A DNA stretch of 64,000 nt from the IMG/VR virus record IMGVR_UViG_3300025849_003344; one strand, given 5' to 3'. Positions 6,119-59,114 of this stretch are shown here, one piece after another. Source of the stretch: a virus. Its lineage: Duplodnaviria; Caudoviricetes. The position numbers were made by a program, and so were the translations under genes. Each line of letters starts with the position of its first letter. Within the stretch, counting starts at the first letter, position 1. A model generated the notes under the pieces. The model had not been told where the DNA came from and did no database searches. It saw only the letters and a list, made by a program, of their open reading frames with translations.

Positions 6119-7150
6119 TTATTCTTCGAAGACAACGGAATCTCCATCGCTATACTGATCTTCGATCTTTTTCCAATGATCGGGATCAGCGTTATTTATG
6201 GTTTGACAGGCGCCAATAGTATTACATGGATAGCCAATCTTACCATAGTTATGCATCTTAATATTGTTCATAAAGTTTCGGCGTTCAGGTGAATTCCAAA
6301 CTTCTATTAAGGTTTGCTCTTTCAGATTTCCTACAACCAAGTCCTGATTATCATCAAGGCAGCATGCATAGAAATCTCCGTTAGGTGCTACATACATAGT
6401 TTCTGTCATAACATTAACCATAGGACATTTAGAATCTGGGTGAGCTTCAAATTCTCCTGATTTAAATCGAGGTCTTTCTGCCCACATACCTGAACTGCTA
6501 TGTCTAACTACACTCAGCGAGTTGAATATATCTTCGCCTAATATTTCTGTTAGGCTTTTACATACCAAACTGTATGAGCTAAATGGTACACTTGTACCAG
6601 CCGGAATTTGAATTGGGTTCTTGTCATATACCGAGAAGATTGTGGCAGCATATTCAAAGGCAGGCATTACGTTAATACCAAAATCTAAATCAGGATAATG
6701 TTCCATCCGCAAACCTAAGAAATGTTTTAGGTTTTTCATTACAGATTTAAACGGAATACCTTTGACAGCCTTATAAGATTCGTCGTTGTGCCCATCAATA
6801 TTAACTTGAATAGAATCGAACAGTTTCTCTCTCACAAGTATCTCAGCAACCTTCTTAGACATTAGTCCAAAGTTGCTTAGCATATCAACCTTCACATTAG
6901 GAAGTTTCTTTTTAATATATCGAAGGATCTCAACAAAGTCTCTATGATATAGTGCCTCGCCATTTTCACTCATATGCATACGCTGCAATTCATACGGAAA
7001 ATCAGGGTGAGCCGCTTCATCTATAATTTTAAATACTAACTCTTTGTCCATATCAAAATTACTTTTAGTGCCACGACTTGCCGGGCACCACACACAAGTA
7101 GCATTGCATCTATTAGACAGTACAAAATTTATATTCTGAAGTGGTTTCAT
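6119..7150 (-). CDS. Radical SAM protein with C-terminal SPASM/twitch domain
   Basis: CNATCVWC (CxxxCxxC); C-terminal CP...VAPNGDFYACC...GNLKEQTLIEVWNS...C. Confidence 0.9.
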   Translation of the reverse strand: MKPLQNINFVLSNRCNATCVWCPASRGTKSNFDMDKELVFKIIDEAAHPDFPYELQRMHMSENGEALYHRDFVEILRYIKKKLPNVKVDMLSNFGLMSKKVAEILVREKLFDSIQVNIDGHNDESYKAVKGIPFKSVMKNLKHFLGLRMEHYPDLDFGINVMPAFEYAATIFSVYDKNPIQIPAGTSVPFSSYSLVCKSLTEILGEDIFNSLSVVRHSSSGMWAERPRFKSGEFEAHPDSKCPMVNVMTETMYVAPNGDFYACCLDDNQDLVVGNLKEQTLIEVWNSPERRNFMNNIKMHNYGKIGYPCNTIGACQTINNADPDHWKKIEDQYSDGDSVVFEE

Positions 7151-10047: not shown

Positions 10048-10079
10048 CTTGTTTTCTCCTAATCACTGTTTCTGTAATT

Positions 10080-10108
10080 AGAATAATACATCTGGAATCA
10101 TATGTAAA
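10080..10108 (-). promoter_or_regulatory. Early promoter
   Basis: aaattaactgTTTACA-N17-TATTCT. Confidence 0.7.
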
Positions 10109-10119
10109 CAGTTAATTTG

Positions 10120-10485
10120 CTATTTTTTCACTTTTTTTTCTTTTACAGTGCCATCAGTTCTGCCAATCTGTTCAATTGGTCTATCTGGCCCGCATATTTT
10201 TCTACATGCCCGCGGTGCATATTCAAGACCTTCGTTTGCTCCTTTTACTACAGCATCAGAAAAAGCTAACCATTCATCTGTCAATAGAATATCTTCGATA
10301 GACTCATTATTTGAAAGTTTAAGCTCTTCGTTCAATAATGCGCTATATAGCGGATCTGGCGGTTTGTGCTCATAGTCAATGTGACAACACGGTATTAAAT
10401 ATCCGGTAGCAGTATGAGCAAATCCTTCTTTTTTCATAAGCAAGGATTTTTTAATGAGACACATAGGTTCAAATTCATTTACCAT
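10120..10485 (-). CDS. Stand-alone SPASM/twitch-like Fe-S domain
   Basis: C...TATGYLIPCC...ACRKICG; no CxxxCxxC. Confidence 0.7.
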   Translation of the reverse strand: MVNEFEPMCLIKKSLLMKKEGFAHTATGYLIPCCHIDYEHKPPDPLYSALLNEELKLSNNESIEDILLTDEWLAFSDAVVKGANEGLEYAPRACRKICGPDRPIEQIGRTDGTVKEKKVKK

Positions 10486-22326: not shown

Positions 22327-22603
22327 TAACTTTCTCCTCTTGCATCTGATATGTCCTTTATAATAGGTTTCTCAGGCAAAGTAAACAGTTAATTTCACTT
22401 ATTTTCAAGTCTTTCTTCACGGAACATCCGTAAGATCCACTCGTGGTATCGTTCTTGCTTCTCTTGGTTCATCGTGTACGTACCTTATCCATAATGTAAT
22501 GTTATCTATAATGTTATCATGCGGGTCATCAAGCTGCGCCTGCCATAGGCGCTGCTCGTCGTCATCCATTCATAATTCCGTTTATAATTTCTATTATTCA
22601 ATA

Positions 22604-31874: not shown

Positions 31875-31972
31875 TTTGATCTCTTTCTTGTTATCTTGTT
31901 TCTATAACCAGAATAATACATTTGAGAAGTCTTGTACACACTTATTTTCACTTATTTTCACTTTTTTTGCAT

Positions 31973-32539
31973 TTAAGCGGCAATAATATTAAACCATTGT
32001 GGAATAGAACGCTTTGACCATACCATATTAAAACGATCTTGTTTAGTCTGATAGTATTCTTTATAAGATCGAACAGGATCACCCTCATACATACATTGTG
32101 GTTCATGTTGCATAGCAAGAGGAAAGTCTGTATATAGGTTAGACCATTTAATACCGCTAGGTGGTTTACTTAGCATATCACGTAGCTTAGTCTCTGTGGC
32201 ATGGATTTTACCATAACGATGTGTGTATTCTTCGCACAGCGCCACAAAATGTTTATAATGCCATTCGTAATTAGCATTTGTCTGCATAGTCCATACAGTA
32301 CACGGGTGACCATGATGTACTGCTTTATATAGTAATTCTTCGTGTGAATGCTTTGGATGGACCCAGTAATTAGACATACGTTTGCCTGATTTCGATGGGC
32401 GTTTTTCCACGTAGCCGTCAAGCATACGGTGTGCAGTAGATAGCATTTGTGCTGACTCTACAATCATTTTTACAACATGTTTGTCACATTGTAGTTGTGC
32501 CGCTTTTACTGGGCAAGTATCTAGTATAAAGATATTCAT
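31973..32539 (-). CDS. denV: Pyrimidine dimer DNA glycosylase / endonuclease V family
   Basis: MNIFIL...CDKHVVKMIVESAQMLSTAHR...HPCTVW...EYTHRYGKIH. Confidence 0.85.
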   Translation of the reverse strand: MNIFILDTCPVKAAQLQCDKHVVKMIVESAQMLSTAHRMLDGYVEKRPSKSGKRMSNYWVHPKHSHEELLYKAVHHGHPCTVWTMQTNANYEWHYKHFVALCEEYTHRYGKIHATETKLRDMLSKPPSGIKWSNLYTDFPLAMQHEPQCMYEGDPVRSYKEYYQTKQDRFNMVWSKRSIPQWFNIIAA

Positions 32540-46792: not shown

Positions 46793-46825
46793 ATCTTCTC
46801 CATAGAAACTTATCTCTATTTATAT

Positions 46826-46850
46826 AAAAAGAAAGCAGCCGAAGCTGCTT
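46826..46850 (-). terminator. Intrinsic terminator with UUCG tetraloop
   Basis: AAGCAGC-TTCG-GCTGCTT-TCTTTTT on minus strand. Confidence 0.85.
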
Positions 46851-46940: not shown

Positions 46941-47183
46941 CTATCTCTCATAAATGTACGCATCGACTCTGTCGGCATACTTGAGAGGTAATGACTGGTT
47001 GTACCGGCGAACGCCGCGGCGATGACCACGTGCTTGAAGTTTGAGATAGTACCGTTGGTACTTACCGTCCTCTTTCAGCATTCTGTTACACTTAGATACG
47101 AAGGATCTAAGATCAGCAATTTGAGGATCTTGACAATCACTAAAAGTTGCTATATACGAATCAGATGTCCGGGTCGTGTACAT
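46941..47183 (-). CDS. Hypothetical early protein
   Basis: 80 aa, coupled to upstream ORF. Confidence 0.6.
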   Translation of the reverse strand: MYTTRTSDSYIATFSDCQDPQIADLRSFVSKCNRMLKEDGKYQRYYLKLQARGHRRGVRRYNQSLPLKYADRVDAYIYER

Positions 47184-47401
47184 TATAATACCTCCGCTTG
47201 GAGGTTACGCTCTTCACGATCAATGTTTTTTATGAGATCTTCGATAATCATATCGAGTTCAACTTGAATGTCTGACTTAGACATGTTAAACGTATTCGAG
47301 CGGCGAAGTACGCTTGCAAGCTTATTCTTCATTACAAGTGCATCGTGTAGGTCTCTTACTATAATCATACTATTCTCCTTATCATGTAACCATACTACCA
47401 T
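47183..47401 (-). CDS. Hypothetical early protein
   Basis: Early promoter 47392-47420; true start probably the MIIVRD downstream of the SD. Confidence 0.55.
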   Translation of the reverse strand: MVVWLHDKENSMIIVRDLHDALVMKNKLASVLRRSNTFNMSKSDIQVELDMIIEDLIKNIDREERNLQAEVL

Positions 47402-47439
47402 ACTTTTAACGAGATGTACATAAAAAAATGCGGTTAAAG

Positions 47440-47467
47440 CCGCATTAATTTAGAGTGTATCATTTAT
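47440..47467. repeat. Direct repeat R copy 1 (ccgcattaatttagagtgtatcatttat)
   Basis: Identical 28 bp at 47440, 47761 and 48890. Confidence 0.95.
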
Positions 47468-47468
47468 A

Positions 47469-47684
47469 TTACAATAATTCGTTTGGATTGTTTTTGTAAG
47501 TTTTAATAAGTTGTGAAAGTGTTAGATTGAAAAAGATAGTGGTTTGAGGGTTATGAGGAGGGAAGATTAGAAAATCGGTAGTAGATGGAAGTTTAAGTGA
47601 TTTGATATATTTAATGATTTCGGGAATAGTGTTGAAAGATAGTGGTTGATTGTAGTTAGATGGGTTAATAAGTGTATAAGTCAT
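47469..47684 (-). CDS. Small protein encoded by an almost G-free coding strand
   Basis: 71 aa; SD AGGAG and early promoter 47713-47741; 5 G in 216 nt. Confidence 0.65.
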   Translation of the reverse strand: MTYTLINPSNYNQPLSFNTIPEIIKYIKSLKLPSTTDFLIFPPHNPQTTIFFNLTLSQLIKTYKNNPNELL

Positions 47685-47760
47685 GTATTTCTCCTTTTTG
47701 ACTGATATAACCTTTCTACCACATGTTAAATCGTTTGTACATAAATTAATGCGGCGTTAA

Positions 47761-47794
47761 CCGCATTAATTTAGAGTGTATCATTTATGTTACT
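47761..47794. repeat. Direct repeat R copy 2, one arm of a 13-bp stem-loop adjoining an early promoter
   Basis: taaattaatgcgg-cgttaa-ccgcattaattta; 34 bp shared with copy 3. Confidence 0.95.
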
Positions 47795-48833
47795 TTACGA
47801 CGGAAGTTTCCTCTAATACTATTTCGTCACCGTCTTTATACGTATCAGACATTCGTTGTAAGGCATTATCGGTTATACCGAGTGTTTGACAAGCACCAAC
47901 AGTGTTGCATGGATATCCTATTTTATCGAACCTTTGCATCTTTAAATTATTAACAAAGTTTATACGATCTTGAGACTTCCAGATTTCTAACACAGTGCTC
48001 TCTTTAAGGTTACCAAGAACCTTGTCGTTATTATCATCTAAGCAACAAACATAGTAATCTCCGTTTGGAGCAATAAACATTTCCTCTTCAACTCGCTTGA
48101 TTAAGGGGCACTTCAAATCAGCATCGATTGCAAACTCACCAGTCTTAAATCGTTCTCTCTCTGCCCACAACCCAGGTTTGCTATGTCTAAATGTAAACAA
48201 TTCGTCATACAAATCTTGGCCCAAATAATCTAATACAGATTGTTGTGTTAGTTCAAAGGAACTAAAAGGAACAGATTCGCCGGGTGGGTGTTGGATAGGG
48301 TTCTTATTAAAAGCGTTAAACACAGCTAGTGAATATTCAAATGCTGGCATAACATTAATGCCAAAAAACATTTCAACGCCAAGTTCTTTTTTGATCTCTA
48401 AGAACTCTTTTACATTCTTCATTACAGAAGAGAAGCTAATCCCTTTTACCGATCTATATGCTCTATCGTTGTGCCCATCTACGTTGACTTGAATAGAGGT
48501 CAGTAGATTCTCTTCAAGTAATACACGCGACATTCTCTTAGACATTAAGCCAAAGTTGCTCAACATATCAATTTCTGTGTTGGGCAAATTCTTTTTAATA
48601 TAACGGAGAATGTCTACATAACTTTTATGATAAAGACCCTCACCATTCTCACTCATATGAATATTTTTAATCTCATATGGAAAATCAGGATGTGAGACCT
48701 CATCTATAATTTTATAGACAAGTTCAGCATCCATATCAAACGCAAGTTTAGTGCCCCGTGAAGTAGGGCACCAAACACATTTTGCATTACATCTATTAGA
48801 TAGCGCAAAGTTTAAGTTACGTAGTGGTTTCAA
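47790..48833 (-). CDS. Radical SAM/SPASM protein, paralog of 6119-7150
   Basis: TTG start; CNAKCVWC; IAPNGDYYVCC; 53/69 identities over the N-terminus by manual alignment. Confidence 0.9.
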   Translation of the reverse strand: MKPLRNLNFALSNRCNAKCVWCPTSRGTKLAFDMDAELVYKIIDEVSHPDFPYEIKNIHMSENGEGLYHKSYVDILRYIKKNLPNTEIDMLSNFGLMSKRMSRVLLEENLLTSIQVNVDGHNDRAYRSVKGISFSSVMKNVKEFLEIKKELGVEMFFGINVMPAFEYSLAVFNAFNKNPIQHPPGESVPFSSFELTQQSVLDYLGQDLYDELFTFRHSKPGLWAERERFKTGEFAIDADLKCPLIKRVEEEMFIAPNGDYYVCCLDDNNDKVLGNLKESTVLEIWKSQDRINFVNNLKMQRFDKIGYPCNTVGACQTLGITDNALQRMSDTYKDGDEIVLEETSVVK

Positions 48834-48853
48834 TTAAAATTCCTGTACTTAAG

Positions 48854-48923
48854 TTTAGGCAGCAGTGGCATACGCCACTGCTGCCTCTGCCGCATTAATT
48901 TAGAGTGTATCATTTATGTTACT
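48854..48923. repeat. Copy of the DUF932 gene 3' end fused to direct repeat R copy 3
   Basis: 48854-48894 matches 49935-49975 at 37/41; R at 48890-48923. Confidence 0.9.
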
Positions 48924-49884
48924 AGTATAGTCCGTTAGGAACTATGGCATAATGGATTGCTAATACAACACCGACTGATGCTGCAAGACCAACCATCATT
49001 TTCAGAAAGTCTTTTCCAATAAGTGGGAATACCACTTTGAATTTTTCTTTTCCAGTTACAGTAGCCATAGCAAGTTCACGTCCACACAATAAGCCAACAA
49101 ATACCCATGTCGTTGACATTGGAATATCATTCAACTCTTTAAAGAAGAATAAGATAAGCCAATAAACACCATCAATAATTGTAGCAGATCTTACATAACG
49201 AGTATTATGTTTTTCGAGAACGATCTGCTGGATTTTACCACCACCTTCTCTGAACATATACCAAAGACCAAGTACGAAGACTGCACTAACGACAATCATT
49301 AGATCGACCGGTATTTGTCGTGGTAAGAATACTGCGATGTTAGCTACATCATGCGAAAGCCATGTAAACCACAAAAATCCTGTAGTTACCCATTGACCGA
49401 TTCGCCAATATCGTTTATGTTCTTCTTTAACAGGTTTTGCTTCGTCTAATATTTTACTTACTACGATCCATATTGCATATGCCGCTACTGCAGCGACTGC
49501 ATATCCCATCATAGATTTCATAAGCATTTTTTCTAAAATAAATGTAGAAGCAAATGCAGATAAAACTAAAAAAGACGTGCTTACTGGTACGCCTATTCGA
49601 GTCAAGATTAGCAATAAACCTGGTGCCATTGCATGATACCATTGGATTTCTTGAAACGGAATCTTATTCAAACGACCATAACTAATGTCGCCTCCGTTCA
49701 TATACCAACCGTACCATAAGGTGTAAAGCAAGACAGCCGAAGCTGATCCCCACATTACTTTCCAGTTTACTCTCTCATTGTTTGATGCGATCCATGTACC
49801 GAGAGTCTGTACAGAATCATTAGCAATAACTGAATAAGCCGCGAATAAAAATCCGACGGCCATCCAGAGAGTTACAAGTTCCAT
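48922..49884 (-). CDS. PiT-family-like inorganic phosphate transporter
   Basis: Polytopic; ANDSVQTLGT and SHDVANIA resemble the two PiT signatures; PVSTS and PMSTT. Confidence 0.65.
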   Translation of the reverse strand: MELVTLWMAVGFLFAAYSVIANDSVQTLGTWIASNNERVNWKVMWGSASAVLLYTLWYGWYMNGGDISYGRLNKIPFQEIQWYHAMAPGLLLILTRIGVPVSTSFLVLSAFASTFILEKMLMKSMMGYAVAAVAAYAIWIVVSKILDEAKPVKEEHKRYWRIGQWVTTGFLWFTWLSHDVANIAVFLPRQIPVDLMIVVSAVFVLGLWYMFREGGGKIQQIVLEKHNTRYVRSATIIDGVYWLILFFFKELNDIPMSTTWVFVGLLCGRELAMATVTGKEKFKVVFPLIGKDFLKMMVGLAASVGVVLAIHYAIVPNGLY

Positions 49885-49935
49885 TGTAATTTTTCTCCTA
49901 GTTGTTACAATGAAACTATATATGTAAAATTAACT

Positions 49936-50886
49936 TTAGGCAGCAGTGGCGTATGCCACTGCTTTCTCTGCCGCAGTTACTTTTTTGGATTGATTGTAAC
50001 CAAACCACTGATTGTGAAGACGATTCTCTGAGTTCCGTCCTTGCAGGTGATCAGTGTAGTAAGTCACACTGTTGAATGCCTGCCACCATGTACCAGCGGC
50101 GAACTGAGCACCTGGCTGAACCTCAAGAGCATCGTAACACATCTTTGCAGCTTTAGACAAATCATCATAAACTGCAACCGGAGTTTTTTCCTCTTTACGA
50201 GATGTAGTTGGAAACACATCGTTGTAATATTGGATAAGAGACTCTGCGGTAATTTTACGGGAACCTAAGAACTGAGCCATCTCTTTGTACTTAGCAAACT
50301 TTTCAGAAGCAATACCAAGAGTTTCTTTTACAGTATCAGCATCAAATGCTGTACGATGACCAACTTTGACAGAACGCTTTGCATCCTGCTGGAGAGAGAA
50401 AGTCAATGTGTTATTGCATACAACACGAATTGGAGTAAACCGAACGTCTACTGCTTTTCCGTACTGATGCGGATTTGAAAAGAGAAGGAAAGATTCGATA
50501 GTGTCTTCACCAAACACATCAAAAGACTCTTTGACTTTTGCCAAAGCCCACACATTACGACCTTCTTTCAAAGATCCTGCTGTGTGCATTTCCATATCAC
50601 CAGCAGCAACAAACTCTGAGAAGAAAGTAAATGCTTCTTCGTTCTGTACTGGCTTCCAATCTTTACCTGTGACGTCAAGCAAAGTATTATCTGATGTACG
50701 GACAAGAGCAACCTTGTCATTGATTTCGAGACCAGATTCGGTAACGATTTTTTGCTGTTCAACTTCCCAGTCGACTCCAGCTTTTTGCATCATTTGTAAT
50801 GGTGTCAAGTCATTGCTAACTTCTGTTCCAAGACCGTGCCATGGAAGTTCACCTGCGTAAGCCATTGTTTCTACTTCATGTGACAT
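49936..50886 (-). CDS. DUF932/DUF945-family protein
   Basis: MAYAGELPWHGLG...VQNEEAF...TAGSLKEG...TPIRVVCNNTL. Confidence 0.9.
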   Translation of the reverse strand: MSHEVETMAYAGELPWHGLGTEVSNDLTPLQMMQKAGVDWEVEQQKIVTESGLEINDKVALVRTSDNTLLDVTGKDWKPVQNEEAFTFFSEFVAAGDMEMHTAGSLKEGRNVWALAKVKESFDVFGEDTIESFLLFSNPHQYGKAVDVRFTPIRVVCNNTLTFSLQQDAKRSVKVGHRTAFDADTVKETLGIASEKFAKYKEMAQFLGSRKITAESLIQYYNDVFPTTSRKEEKTPVAVYDDLSKAAKMCYDALEVQPGAQFAAGTWWQAFNSVTYYTDHLQGRNSENRLHNQWFGYNQSKKVTAAEKAVAYATAA

Positions 50887-51047: not shown

Positions 51048-51197
51048 TAACGATTCCTCTCATTCATTTGATAAGACCATTATAGCACAGTACTTATCAT
51101 ATGTACACAGTTAATTTGCGTTTTTTAAACTTTTTTTTCATTTTGTTAGCACTAACATTTTATAGATATTTACATCTTAAACAAAAGGTGTGACAAA

Positions 51198-52133: not shown

Positions 52134-52375
52134 TATACTGTTTCTCCAAAAAAGTTATCAACTAGAACTTCAAAGCACTCATACAGATATTCTGAAGTGT
52201 ACCACAATGAAAGTTCTAAGTTTAGGTCAGCGTCAACAAAGTTCCAGTTAATACCACCCGATGAATTAATATTCTCAGGATTCGTAGTAGCTTTGTTAAA
52301 AGCTTCGATTACGTCATTCTTGATCATTGCACCGTTTGATAATAACATGGTTATCTCCTCATTTGATATATACAC
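52133..52375 (-). CDS. Hypothetical early protein
   Basis: INWNFVDADL; early promoter 52374-52402; true start probably near 52345 after GAGGAG. Confidence 0.6.
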   Translation of the reverse strand: MYISNEEITMLLSNGAMIKNDVIEAFNKATTNPENINSSGGINWNFVDADLNLELSLWYTSEYLYECFEVLVDNFFGETV

Positions 52376-52440
52376 TATACACTATCTAAAAGGTAATGTA
52401 CATAAAAAAATGCGGTTTTTTAAAAAATAGTTTTGTTTAA

Positions 52441-58370: not shown

Positions 58371-58433
58371 GGTACTGCCTCATTTTTTTATATATGAGTA
58401 TACCTTAACATGTTTTAAAAGCAATGTACACAG

Positions 58434-59114
58434 TTAATTTAGCTTTATTGGAAATATTTTTTCAATAGCTTTACCTACTTCGATAGCCAAATCCATATGT
58501 TCTTTCTGTGTTCCATTTGCAGATCGAAGTTCGATATAATGAATCCATGATCTAATAGTACCATTCACATACAATCTAGAAACGGTATTGCCTTCTGGCA
58601 GAACAGCTCTGGCTTGCTCTTTGGCAATGCCTGCTTCAATAGCCCAGTCATAAGCATGCTTCGCCGCTTCGATTACTTTTTGCTGATGGGCATGCCACGC
58701 TCTTTGAAGATGTTTATCATCTGTATCAATTGAGTTCTGGCGGTTCTTAGTATCTTGTAGGCGCGCCTCTCGAATTACAAAATTATTACCAAGATCACGT
58801 ACATCAGCATAGCGCTGACTAAACTCCTGAAAAGAAAACGAACGATGCCGGAGTAACTGTCTGGCGATGTCTCTTGTCGTGGTGACTTCGATGCACGCTG
58901 ACGCCATTTCGAATGGTGACCAGTGCTTGTGCTTGACGAGGTACTCCAAGAGTTTTTGTGTTGTCTTTGTGTTCCGCTGATTCGACGGATTGGAGACACG
59001 GGCGGCAAACGCGATGAGATCCGCAATGTTATCTAAACCTCCTATTGCCAATTCTCCGCCATGAATACGGTAAGATGGCTGACTGTGTGAAATTAGGCGA
59101 GCTTCCATGGTCAT
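58434..59114 (-). CDS. thyX: FAD-dependent thymidylate synthase
   Basis: HWSPFE...RQLLRHRSFSFQEFSQRY...RSWIHYIELR. Confidence 0.95.
   Translation of the reverse strand: MTMEARLISHSQPSYRIHGGELAIGGLDNIADLIAFAARVSNPSNQRNTKTTQKLLEYLVKHKHWSPFEMASACIEVTTTRDIARQLLRHRSFSFQEFSQRYADVRDLGNNFVIREARLQDTKNRQNSIDTDDKHLQRAWHAHQQKVIEAAKHAYDWAIEAGIAKEQARAVLPEGNTVSRLYVNGTIRSWIHYIELRSANGTQKEHMDLAIEVGKAIEKIFPIKLN

Follow-up and report, generated by a model that had tools for sequence, protein, structure and literature searches.

The DNA analysed here is a 64,000-nt stretch (the window) of the IMG/VR virus record IMGVR_UViG_3300025849_003344, in which a 34-nt direct repeat, R, recurs three times within an array of small genes. 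The array lies on the minus strand, the strand of all genes from ~40 to 52.4 kb, between the gene for a DUF932 protein and a short open reading frame (ORF), o72, and comprises a PiT-like permease gene, a radical SAM gene and a 71-amino-acid (71-aa) ORF, o71, each ending at a copy of R. Elsewhere the window encodes gp32 (PF08804; 5128-6027), a UvsX-like recombinase, a DnaB-like helicase and a ribonucleotide reductase (RNR), and the best relatives of its DUF6267 protein are found in Phage C48C1, Stenotrophomonas phage DLP6, Methylophilales phage Melnitz, Pelagibacter phage HTVC008M and cyanomyoviruses. We assign the source to an uncultured marine T4-like myovirus. No cultured close relative was found, as neither megablast nor blastn matched 46.8-50.0 kb to any of 50,697 phage records; the nearest phage record (18 kb) matches the window at 7.1-11.6 kb only and does not contain R. 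The features of the locus, in coding-strand order, are given below (SD, Shine-Dalgarno sequence).

52374..52413, minus strand: half unit that lacks R and the 5' arm but has the 3' arm, the T-run and a TGTACA-N17-TATAGT promoter; it heads the whole minus-strand gene block
49930..49982, minus strand: H1, source of H2; the DUF932 gene (ORF 49936-50886) has its original 3' end here, with a hairpin in the coding sequence
47795..49936, minus strand: block of 2,142 bp (PiT-like gene, R3, H2, radical SAM gene) absent from the closest relatives
48922..49884, minus strand: PiT/PHO4-like permease cargo gene (Pfam PHO4 weak, E 0.0019, below cut-off)
48889..48922, minus strand: R copy 3 (R3), whose first coding-strand base is the G of the PiT-like TAG stop
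48849..48901, minus strand: H2, a non-coding copy of the DUF932 end (last 44 nt plus 9 nt past the stop)
47790..48833, minus strand: radical SAM/SPASM cargo gene with TTG start (Pfam PF04055 and PF13186)
47760..47793, minus strand: R copy 2 (R2), holding the TAA stop of the radical SAM gene
47713..47773, minus strand: stem-loop 2 and promoter 2 (stem 47742-47773, -35 TGTACA 47736-47741, -10 TAGAAA 47713-47718)
47469..47684, minus strand: o71, the 71-aa cassette gene between R2 and R1, present also in the relatives L006, L007, L037, L008 and L165
47439..47472, minus strand: R copy 1 (R1), with a TATAAATG box and the TAA at which the 71-aa ORF ends
47420..47446, minus strand: stem-loop 1 (AATGCGGC / GCCGCATT) and seven-T run, a predicted intrinsic terminator
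47366..47420, minus strand: promoter 1, SD and ATG (-35 TGTACA 47415-47420, 17-nt spacer, TGG and -10 TAGTAT 47392-47397)
47183..47368, minus strand: o72, a gene of 61 aa when read from the second ATG; divergent allele, exchanged exactly at the ORF boundaries

The sequence of R is GCCGCATTAATTTAGAGTGTATCATTTAT(A/G)TTAC on the plus strand and GTAA(C/T)ATAAATGATACACTCTAAATTAATGCGG(C/T) on the coding strand. The three copies differ pairwise by 1-2 of 34 bases (R2 and R3 being 33/34 identical), no fourth copy is present within the window, and 100 shuffles of the sequence produced no match. A first-pass annotation of this DNA had described a direct repeat in three copies, each starting within 10 bp of the stop codon of a different gene, and both statements are borne out. 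The TAA stops of the 71-aa 'G-poor' ORF (47469-47471) and of the radical SAM gene (47790-47792) occupy positions 2-4 of R1 and R2, respectively, and the PiT-like gene stops at a TAG (48922-48924) that touches R3. Furthermore, R1 and R2 form part of a longer repeat of 89 nt with 78% identity.

Copies 1 and 2 each open an intergenic unit that begins with the TAA inside R and continues to the ATG of the following gene. On the coding strand, this unit reads stop codon, ATAAAT box, GC-cored stem-loop, T-run, TGTACA-N17-TAGnAt promoter, ribosome site (AAGGAG) and start codon. The 3' end of R (AATGCGG, its last 7-8 bases) is the 5' arm of the hairpin in both units, in agreement with the earlier proposal that R forms one arm of a hairpin abutting an early promoter in two copies. 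R extends 22 nt upstream of the hairpin, on this one side only, leaving the conserved part asymmetric. Stem-loop 1 (SL1), with a stem of 7-8 bp followed by T7 (TTTTTTT), folds with -14.6 kcal/mol (z -3.2 against shuffled sequence) and was called an intrinsic terminator by a consensus terminator scan. Stem-loop 2 (SL2), a 14-bp stem with 14 paired positions, folds with -18.8 kcal/mol (z -4.9 against shuffled sequence). Pairing of the stems is kept in 96.9% of cells, with one compensatory GC-to-AU change (GCGGC/GCCGC against GCAGC/GCTGC).

Downstream of the stem-loops, TGG precedes the -10 hexamer in both promoters (TGG-TAGTAT and TGG-TAGAAA). The same motif, gTGTACA-N17-TAnnAT, often with TG before the -10, heads ~8 other gene blocks in the window and also lies 3' of the radical SAM homologue in other marine phages, a distribution that identifies it as the predicted host-type early promoter of this phage group. 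Behind promoter 1, an SD of sequence AAGGAG (47375-47380) precedes the ATG at 47366-47368. This is the second ATG of a 72-aa ORF (47183-47401) and is probably the true start of o72, the resulting 61 aa fitting the length of its homologues. At copy 3, R is followed by a different hairpin (48857-48886, within H2), which has a 13-bp stem and no T-run, and the promoter and terminator scan found no early promoter after it.

R was found in 11 related contigs (10 from IMG/VR and one binned in a metagenome-assembled genome (MAG) of Hellea), always at the same locus, and in the two large relatives (135 and 152 kb) it is confined to this locus. A scan of GTDB genomes for R returned two AT-rich chance matches (Salegentibacter and C. 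difficile) and the phage contig in the Hellea MAG. The latter contig, L165 (JABGVR010000149.1, 3.9 kb), has the arrangement of L006 and is binned in a Hellea sp. MAG; it may be mis-binned phage DNA, or else it gives a weak hint at an alphaproteobacterial host. More distant relatives (DUF932 at 77% identity or less) contain no R, and some of them carry their own repeated hairpin-promoter units in the same region. The gene orders at the locus are as follows.

L006, L007, L037 and L165 (DUF932 97-99% identical): DUF932, R, o71, R, o72
Window: DUF932, PiT-like, R, H2-radical SAM, R, o71, R, o72
L008 and L023: DUF932, c5, R, o71, degraded unit without hairpin, o72
L009, L003 and L164: c5, R, o72
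L013: c8, c5, R, c20, R, o72
L012: short spacer, R, o72

There are thus six gene arrangements among the 11 R-bearing relatives, with seven different sequences upstream of R, and the interval from DUF932 to DUF6267 varies between ~0.1 and 5.9 kb across related loci. The closest relatives lack the PiT-like and radical SAM genes. By blastn, the window runs collinear with L006 and L037 as far as the DUF932 stop codon, and collinearity resumes at the first base of R2; what lies between is one exact insertion, the block at 47795-49936. In L013, the stretch from the ATG to R holds an unrelated ORF of 60 aa (c20) in place of o71, and in L009, L012 and L164 o71 is absent, deleted together with one unit. 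Likewise, o72 shows 40-73% nucleotide identity to its counterpart in L006 between flanks of 93-100%, with the breaks at the SD/ATG and at the stop codon. The first-pass annotation had supposed that genes come and go between copies of R, and the relatives indeed hold differing rather than identical cargo, with insertions and deletions bounded by R.

The units themselves carry signs of recombination. In an alignment of 12 units, classified by spacer type (A or B) and by -10/leader type (o71 or o72), all four combinations are present, which requires crossovers between spacer and leader. R1 of the window is b-type in its first five bases and a-type in the remainder, and the a copy of L165 is another a/b chimera. 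Against the 1-2 bases that separate the copies of R in the window, there are 6 differences between the two copies of L006, and 4 between the L006 copy at the o71-o72 junction and its equivalent in the window; this points to homogenisation of R, or to its recent duplication, in the lineage of the window. Moreover, both the replacement of o71 by c20 and the loss of o71 have their two ends within units. Taken over the alignment, the predicted crossovers are scattered along the units, with no fixed point.

Two other joins show microhomology. At the joint between the end of R3 and H2, the hexamer TGCGGC is common to R (..AATGCGGC) and to the end of DUF932 (..ACTGCGGCAGAG). The join of DUF932 to the 5' edge of R in L006 may have arisen by deletion between two copies of CTA. 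This marks the events at the 5' edge as illegitimate ones that would have used microhomology, as opposed to the apparently homologous events inside the units.

H2 is 85% identical to H1 and carries an AA-to-GC change that is found in no DUF932 allele and that lengthens its stem from 9 to 13 bp. We read the R3-H2 join as the scar of an illegitimate join by which two cargo genes were stacked. In the simplest history, the site between the DUF932 stop and R would have held the PiT-like gene in one genome and, as alternative cargo, the radical SAM gene in a related one. A single illegitimate crossover at TGCGGC, or the integration of a circle via the DUF932 end, would then have kept both cargos, duplicated the DUF932 end and left H2 behind.

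The source of H2 has a feature of its own. The last ~30 nt of the DUF932 coding sequence (within 49936-49982) form a hairpin that is kept at the equivalent site in L016, L018, L020 and L021. Across these distant relatives it shows compensatory synonymous changes (GCAGTGG/CCACTGC, GCGGTGG/CCACCGC and GCAGTAG/CTACTGC), suggesting a selected RNA hairpin inside the end of the gene.

Other changes concern the palindromes as such. Two T-to-A changes make the stem of SL2 (47742-47773) perfect. SL2 and the H2 hairpin flank the new radical SAM gene, and both have perfect stems of 13-14 bp that arose from paired substitutions absent from all relatives; these paired changes look like palindrome-templated correction. 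In addition, the hairpin of unit a is reverse-complemented between L006 (7137-7150) and L007 (2195-2208), reading GCAGCTTTGGCTGC in L006 and GCAGCCAAAGCTGC in L007 with loops TTTG and CAAA, respectively, so that the palindrome appears to have been flipped between these close relatives.

Turning to the cargo, the window has a second, resident radical SAM/SPASM gene at 6119-7150, directly upstream of gp32, as in other marine T4-like phages. The array copy is 60% identical (aa) to the resident one, and its identity to the counterpart in other marine T4-like phages is 67%. The similarity between array and resident genes begins at the second base of the start codon (TTG against ATG), which marks the array gene as a second, foreign copy, presumably captured from another phage as an ORF-sized piece. 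No donor was found, the best homologues in IMG/VR and metagenomes being 67-78% identical. Close homologues (61-69% identical) with downstream sequence on the contig have no R nearby and sit upstream of gp32.

The atlas neighbours of the PiT-like protein are viral 'phosphate/sulfate permease' clusters. In relatives, the alternative cargo c5 (L008:1588-2061, L013:1518-1991) encodes a 157-aa single-repeat protein of the Na+/Pi-cotransporter family (PF02690, 58.7 bits); the gene is frameshifted in L009. The site after DUF932 is a hot spot for alternative phosphate-transporter-like cargos, c5 in the relatives and the PiT-like gene in the window. Of the public contigs, 48 encode the exact PiT-like protein and 23 the exact radical SAM protein, which 7 more carry as a 314-aa call; some of these contigs reach 151-207 kb. 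The exact o71 protein is encoded on 49.

Taken together, the layout and the variation at this locus indicate that R is probably the 5' portion, next to the stop codon, of an intergenic regulatory cassette of 75-110 nt that belongs to the PeSL (promoter-early stem-loop) kind. PeSLs were described in the T4-type phages RB49/phi1 (Arbiol et al., 2010; PMC2839356) and also in PST/T4 and nt-1/KVP40 (Comeau et al., 2014; PMC4122927). They consist of an upstream stop codon, a stem-loop, an AT-rich tract, a sigma70-type promoter, an SD and an ATG; they cluster in hyperplastic regions, bound insertions and deletions and recombine at variable internal points, and 'half' PeSLs are known (PMC4122927, PMC2839356). 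Neighbouring PeSLs recombine to give mini-circles, and recombinant junctions of PeSLs have been shown by inverse PCR (PMC2839356).

The first-pass annotation had noted a resemblance to these cassettes, which is upheld by the published layout, by the setting in a variable region of a T4-like genome and by R-unit-bounded insertions, deletions and replacements in relatives. All features that define PeSLs at the sequence level are present: a unit from stop to ATG, a predicted terminator stem-loop, a sigma70-like promoter with SD, clustering and bounded indels. Here, too, the stem-loop or terminator lies just upstream of an AT-rich tract with a sigma70-type -35, 17-nt spacer and -10, an SD and the start codon; the units are grouped among small non-essential genes; close relatives differ by indels and replacements that end at units, with varying internal crossover points; and half or degraded units occur. 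The clustering amounts to three copies and a half unit within 5 kb of a T4-like genome, a low copy number compared with published PeSLs, of which there are dozens per genome whereas the present ones are restricted to one locus. The repeat differs further in reaching 22 nt upstream of the hairpin with an invariant, late-promoter-like ATAAAT box, in its -35 hexamer (TGTACA) and in the one copy that is R alone fused to a duplicated gene end. Finally, phage and host are uncultured and marine.

In such an arrangement, the stem-loop with its T-run would terminate or insulate the upstream transcript, and the host sigma70-type early promoter (TGTACA, 17 nt, TGn-TAGnAt) would drive the next gene. The cassettes would punctuate the variable region between conserved genes. 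As the sole sequence common to otherwise unrelated neighbour genes, they would serve as portable homology for the general recombination system of the phage, of which a UvsX-type recombinase is encoded in the window. Crossovers within units would allow genes to be exchanged, deleted and inserted with ORF precision. No homology exists at the 5' edge of R, and the short-microhomology joins there would have been retained because the stop codon remained. That the promoters and terminators are active, that recombination takes this route and that circles may arise as intermediates are inferences from the sequence. The mechanism as such is not new, PeSL-type shuffling having already been described for T4-type phages. 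The present locus would add an abundant, uncultured lineage of marine T4-like phages to the cultured T4-type phages of enterobacteria and Vibrio in which it is known. It also offers an unusually clean natural case, with an exact 2.1-kb insertion and an internal scar recording the stacking of two alternative cargos. The cargo is ecologically suggestive, with a PiT-like permease here, a Na+/Pi-cotransporter-family protein in relatives and a second, foreign radical SAM gene.

Several observations weigh against this interpretation. The T-run of SL2 is interrupted (TTAATTTAT; TTAATTT in unit 2), and SL2 may be poor at termination. Copy 3 is R alone, without terminator arm or early promoter, and hence an incomplete cassette. 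Covariation support for the stems is statistically weak, the one compensatory pair not exceeding that of shuffles. The homology available for recombination is short (34 nt, or the 89 nt at 78% identity), the array is tiny, with its three copies and half unit, and R is limited to one locus in a narrow clade. In addition, the joins at the 5' edge of R rest on microhomology rather than on homologous exchange, and R may be a frequent neighbour of indels rather than their cause.

These last points could also be taken to mean that the copies of R are passive, duplication by-products of illegitimate insertions, with gene turnover proceeding by microhomology and by allelic exchange through the conserved flanking genes. 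The left bound of the 2,142-bp insertion is the DUF932 stop codon, where there is no unit, and both the 6-nt microhomology at the R3-H2 join and the possible CTA deletion behind the DUF932-R join of L006 would fit, as would the shortness of R and its narrow distribution. Passive repeats would not, however, be expected to form mosaic units with all four spacer and leader combinations and a/b chimeras in R, to be homogenised as in the window, or to enclose on both sides events such as the o71/c20 replacement and the loss of o71. Crossovers inside units are needed to account for these, and we regard purely passive repeats as distinctly unlikely. An artefact of assembly, in which the PiT-R-H2-radical SAM segment would be a chimera of two strains joined at repeats, is very improbable. 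The near-identity of R2 and R3 (33/34) and the similarity of H1 and H2 could confuse an assembler, and the exact junctions of the window were not found in any related contig examined, a further point against our interpretation. Nevertheless, the overlap of the R3-H2 junction with either parent is 6 nt, too short for k-mer assembly to have made the join, and the junction must exist in real DNA. The many public contigs encoding the exact PiT-like or radical SAM proteins also make a one-off assembly error unlikely, and L006, L007, L037 and L165, which come from separate samples, have the same basic layout of R units.

The fixed position of R at stop codons had led the first-pass annotation to suggest an integron-like recombination site. 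An attC-type site of this kind would be used by a site-specific recombinase to capture and excise promoterless cassettes next to the stop codon. R does start at or inside the stop codon of every upstream gene, belongs to a hairpin-forming sequence and is followed by cargo that varies among relatives, as in integrons, where a repeated hairpin-forming site directly follows the stop codon of each cassette gene. The suggestion is nevertheless not supported. Tyrosine recombinase domains (PF00589) were not found in five related phage records, two of them complete, in a search whose positive control scored 14/14 genomes, and no such domain occurs among the nine ORFs neighbouring the array, so that no IntI-type integrase was found here. 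The core sites R''/R' (RYYYAAC ... GTTRRRY), with their symmetry, are absent from the 12 aligned units, as judged by inspection. Of the three cassettes, two (units 1 and 2) have their own promoter motif, the crossover points are scattered through the units so that junction positions vary, the R3-H2 and DUF932-R joins are microhomology joins, and the setting is a lytic T4-like phage. We consider an integron-like site scarcely credible. Mobility of the kind shown by miniature inverted-repeat transposable elements or homing endonucleases was also considered and dropped, there being neither an endonuclease gene nor a target-site duplication.

A further possibility, compatible with the PeSL-type cassette, is that the 5' half of R functions as a late promoter of the T4 type. 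T4-type late promoters read TATAAATA, and NATAAATA is the form used by marine T4-like cyanophages (PMC2984593). The 5' half of R holds (C/T)ATAAAT(A/G), its ATAAAT is invariant in 13/13 copies examined (12 aligned and that of unit a in L165), and the exact NATAAATA is found in 7/13, all of them in relatives (L006_a, L007_a, L165_a and b-type copies). The motif also precedes many window genes, TATAAATA lying 5-84 nt upstream of 10 window ORFs and CATAAATA upstream of one more. The cassette genes would then be expressed late as well as early, and R3, the sole promoter-like element within 90 nt of the radical SAM start, would drive the otherwise promoterless radical SAM gene, H2 serving as a hairpin in the 5' leader. 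In L019, the sequence behind the closest PiT homologue likewise has TATAAATA and then a hairpin. On the other hand, the boxes of the window all end in G (CATAAATG, CATAAATG and TATAAATG (C/TATAAATG)), and in copies 1 and 2 the box lies upstream rather than downstream of a terminator-type hairpin, at which most transcripts would end after ~40 nt. The reverse order is seen elsewhere in the window, as at 46833-46850, where the terminator comes first and the late box TATAAATA second. Furthermore, TATAAATA was counted 12 times in the window against ~14 expected from base composition, leaving its placement alone as telling. A late-promoter function of R is possible on this evidence, though doubtful.

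Rather unlikely, in our view, is the more far-reaching proposal that the ATAAAT box at the 5' edge of R is the actual joint at which foreign ORFs are captured. Boxes of sequence NATAAATA often stand directly after stop codons in these marine T4-like phages, for instance at the junction of the resident radical SAM gene with gp32 (~6120) and after the closest PiT homologue in L019. If this were true, recombination between boxes would move an ORF with its stop codon in front of a ready-made terminator-promoter unit. The promoter boxes would then amount to a genome-wide code for cassette exchange without a dedicated recombinase, explaining why cargo ends exactly at R.

The stretch around 46833-46850 is of interest in its own right. 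It consists of a terminator-like hairpin (AAGCAGC TTCG GCTGCTT and a T-run) followed by TATAAATA at 46816-46823, 24 nt before a 456-aa gene. The whole stretch is 100% identical to L006 and has the usual order of terminator, then late promoter.

A scan against Rfam gave nothing relevant, its sole match being a sub-threshold alpha_tmRNA inside the PiT-like gene, which was read as chance. The window also contains a second, dispersed repeat family at 10067-10145, 22360-22414, 31897-31975, 51066-51144 and 58405-58459, with members of 55-79 nt and 60-73% identity. These repeats lack R; read on the minus strand, they have an A-rich upstream tract, followed by (T/G)TACA-type early promoters that head gene blocks.

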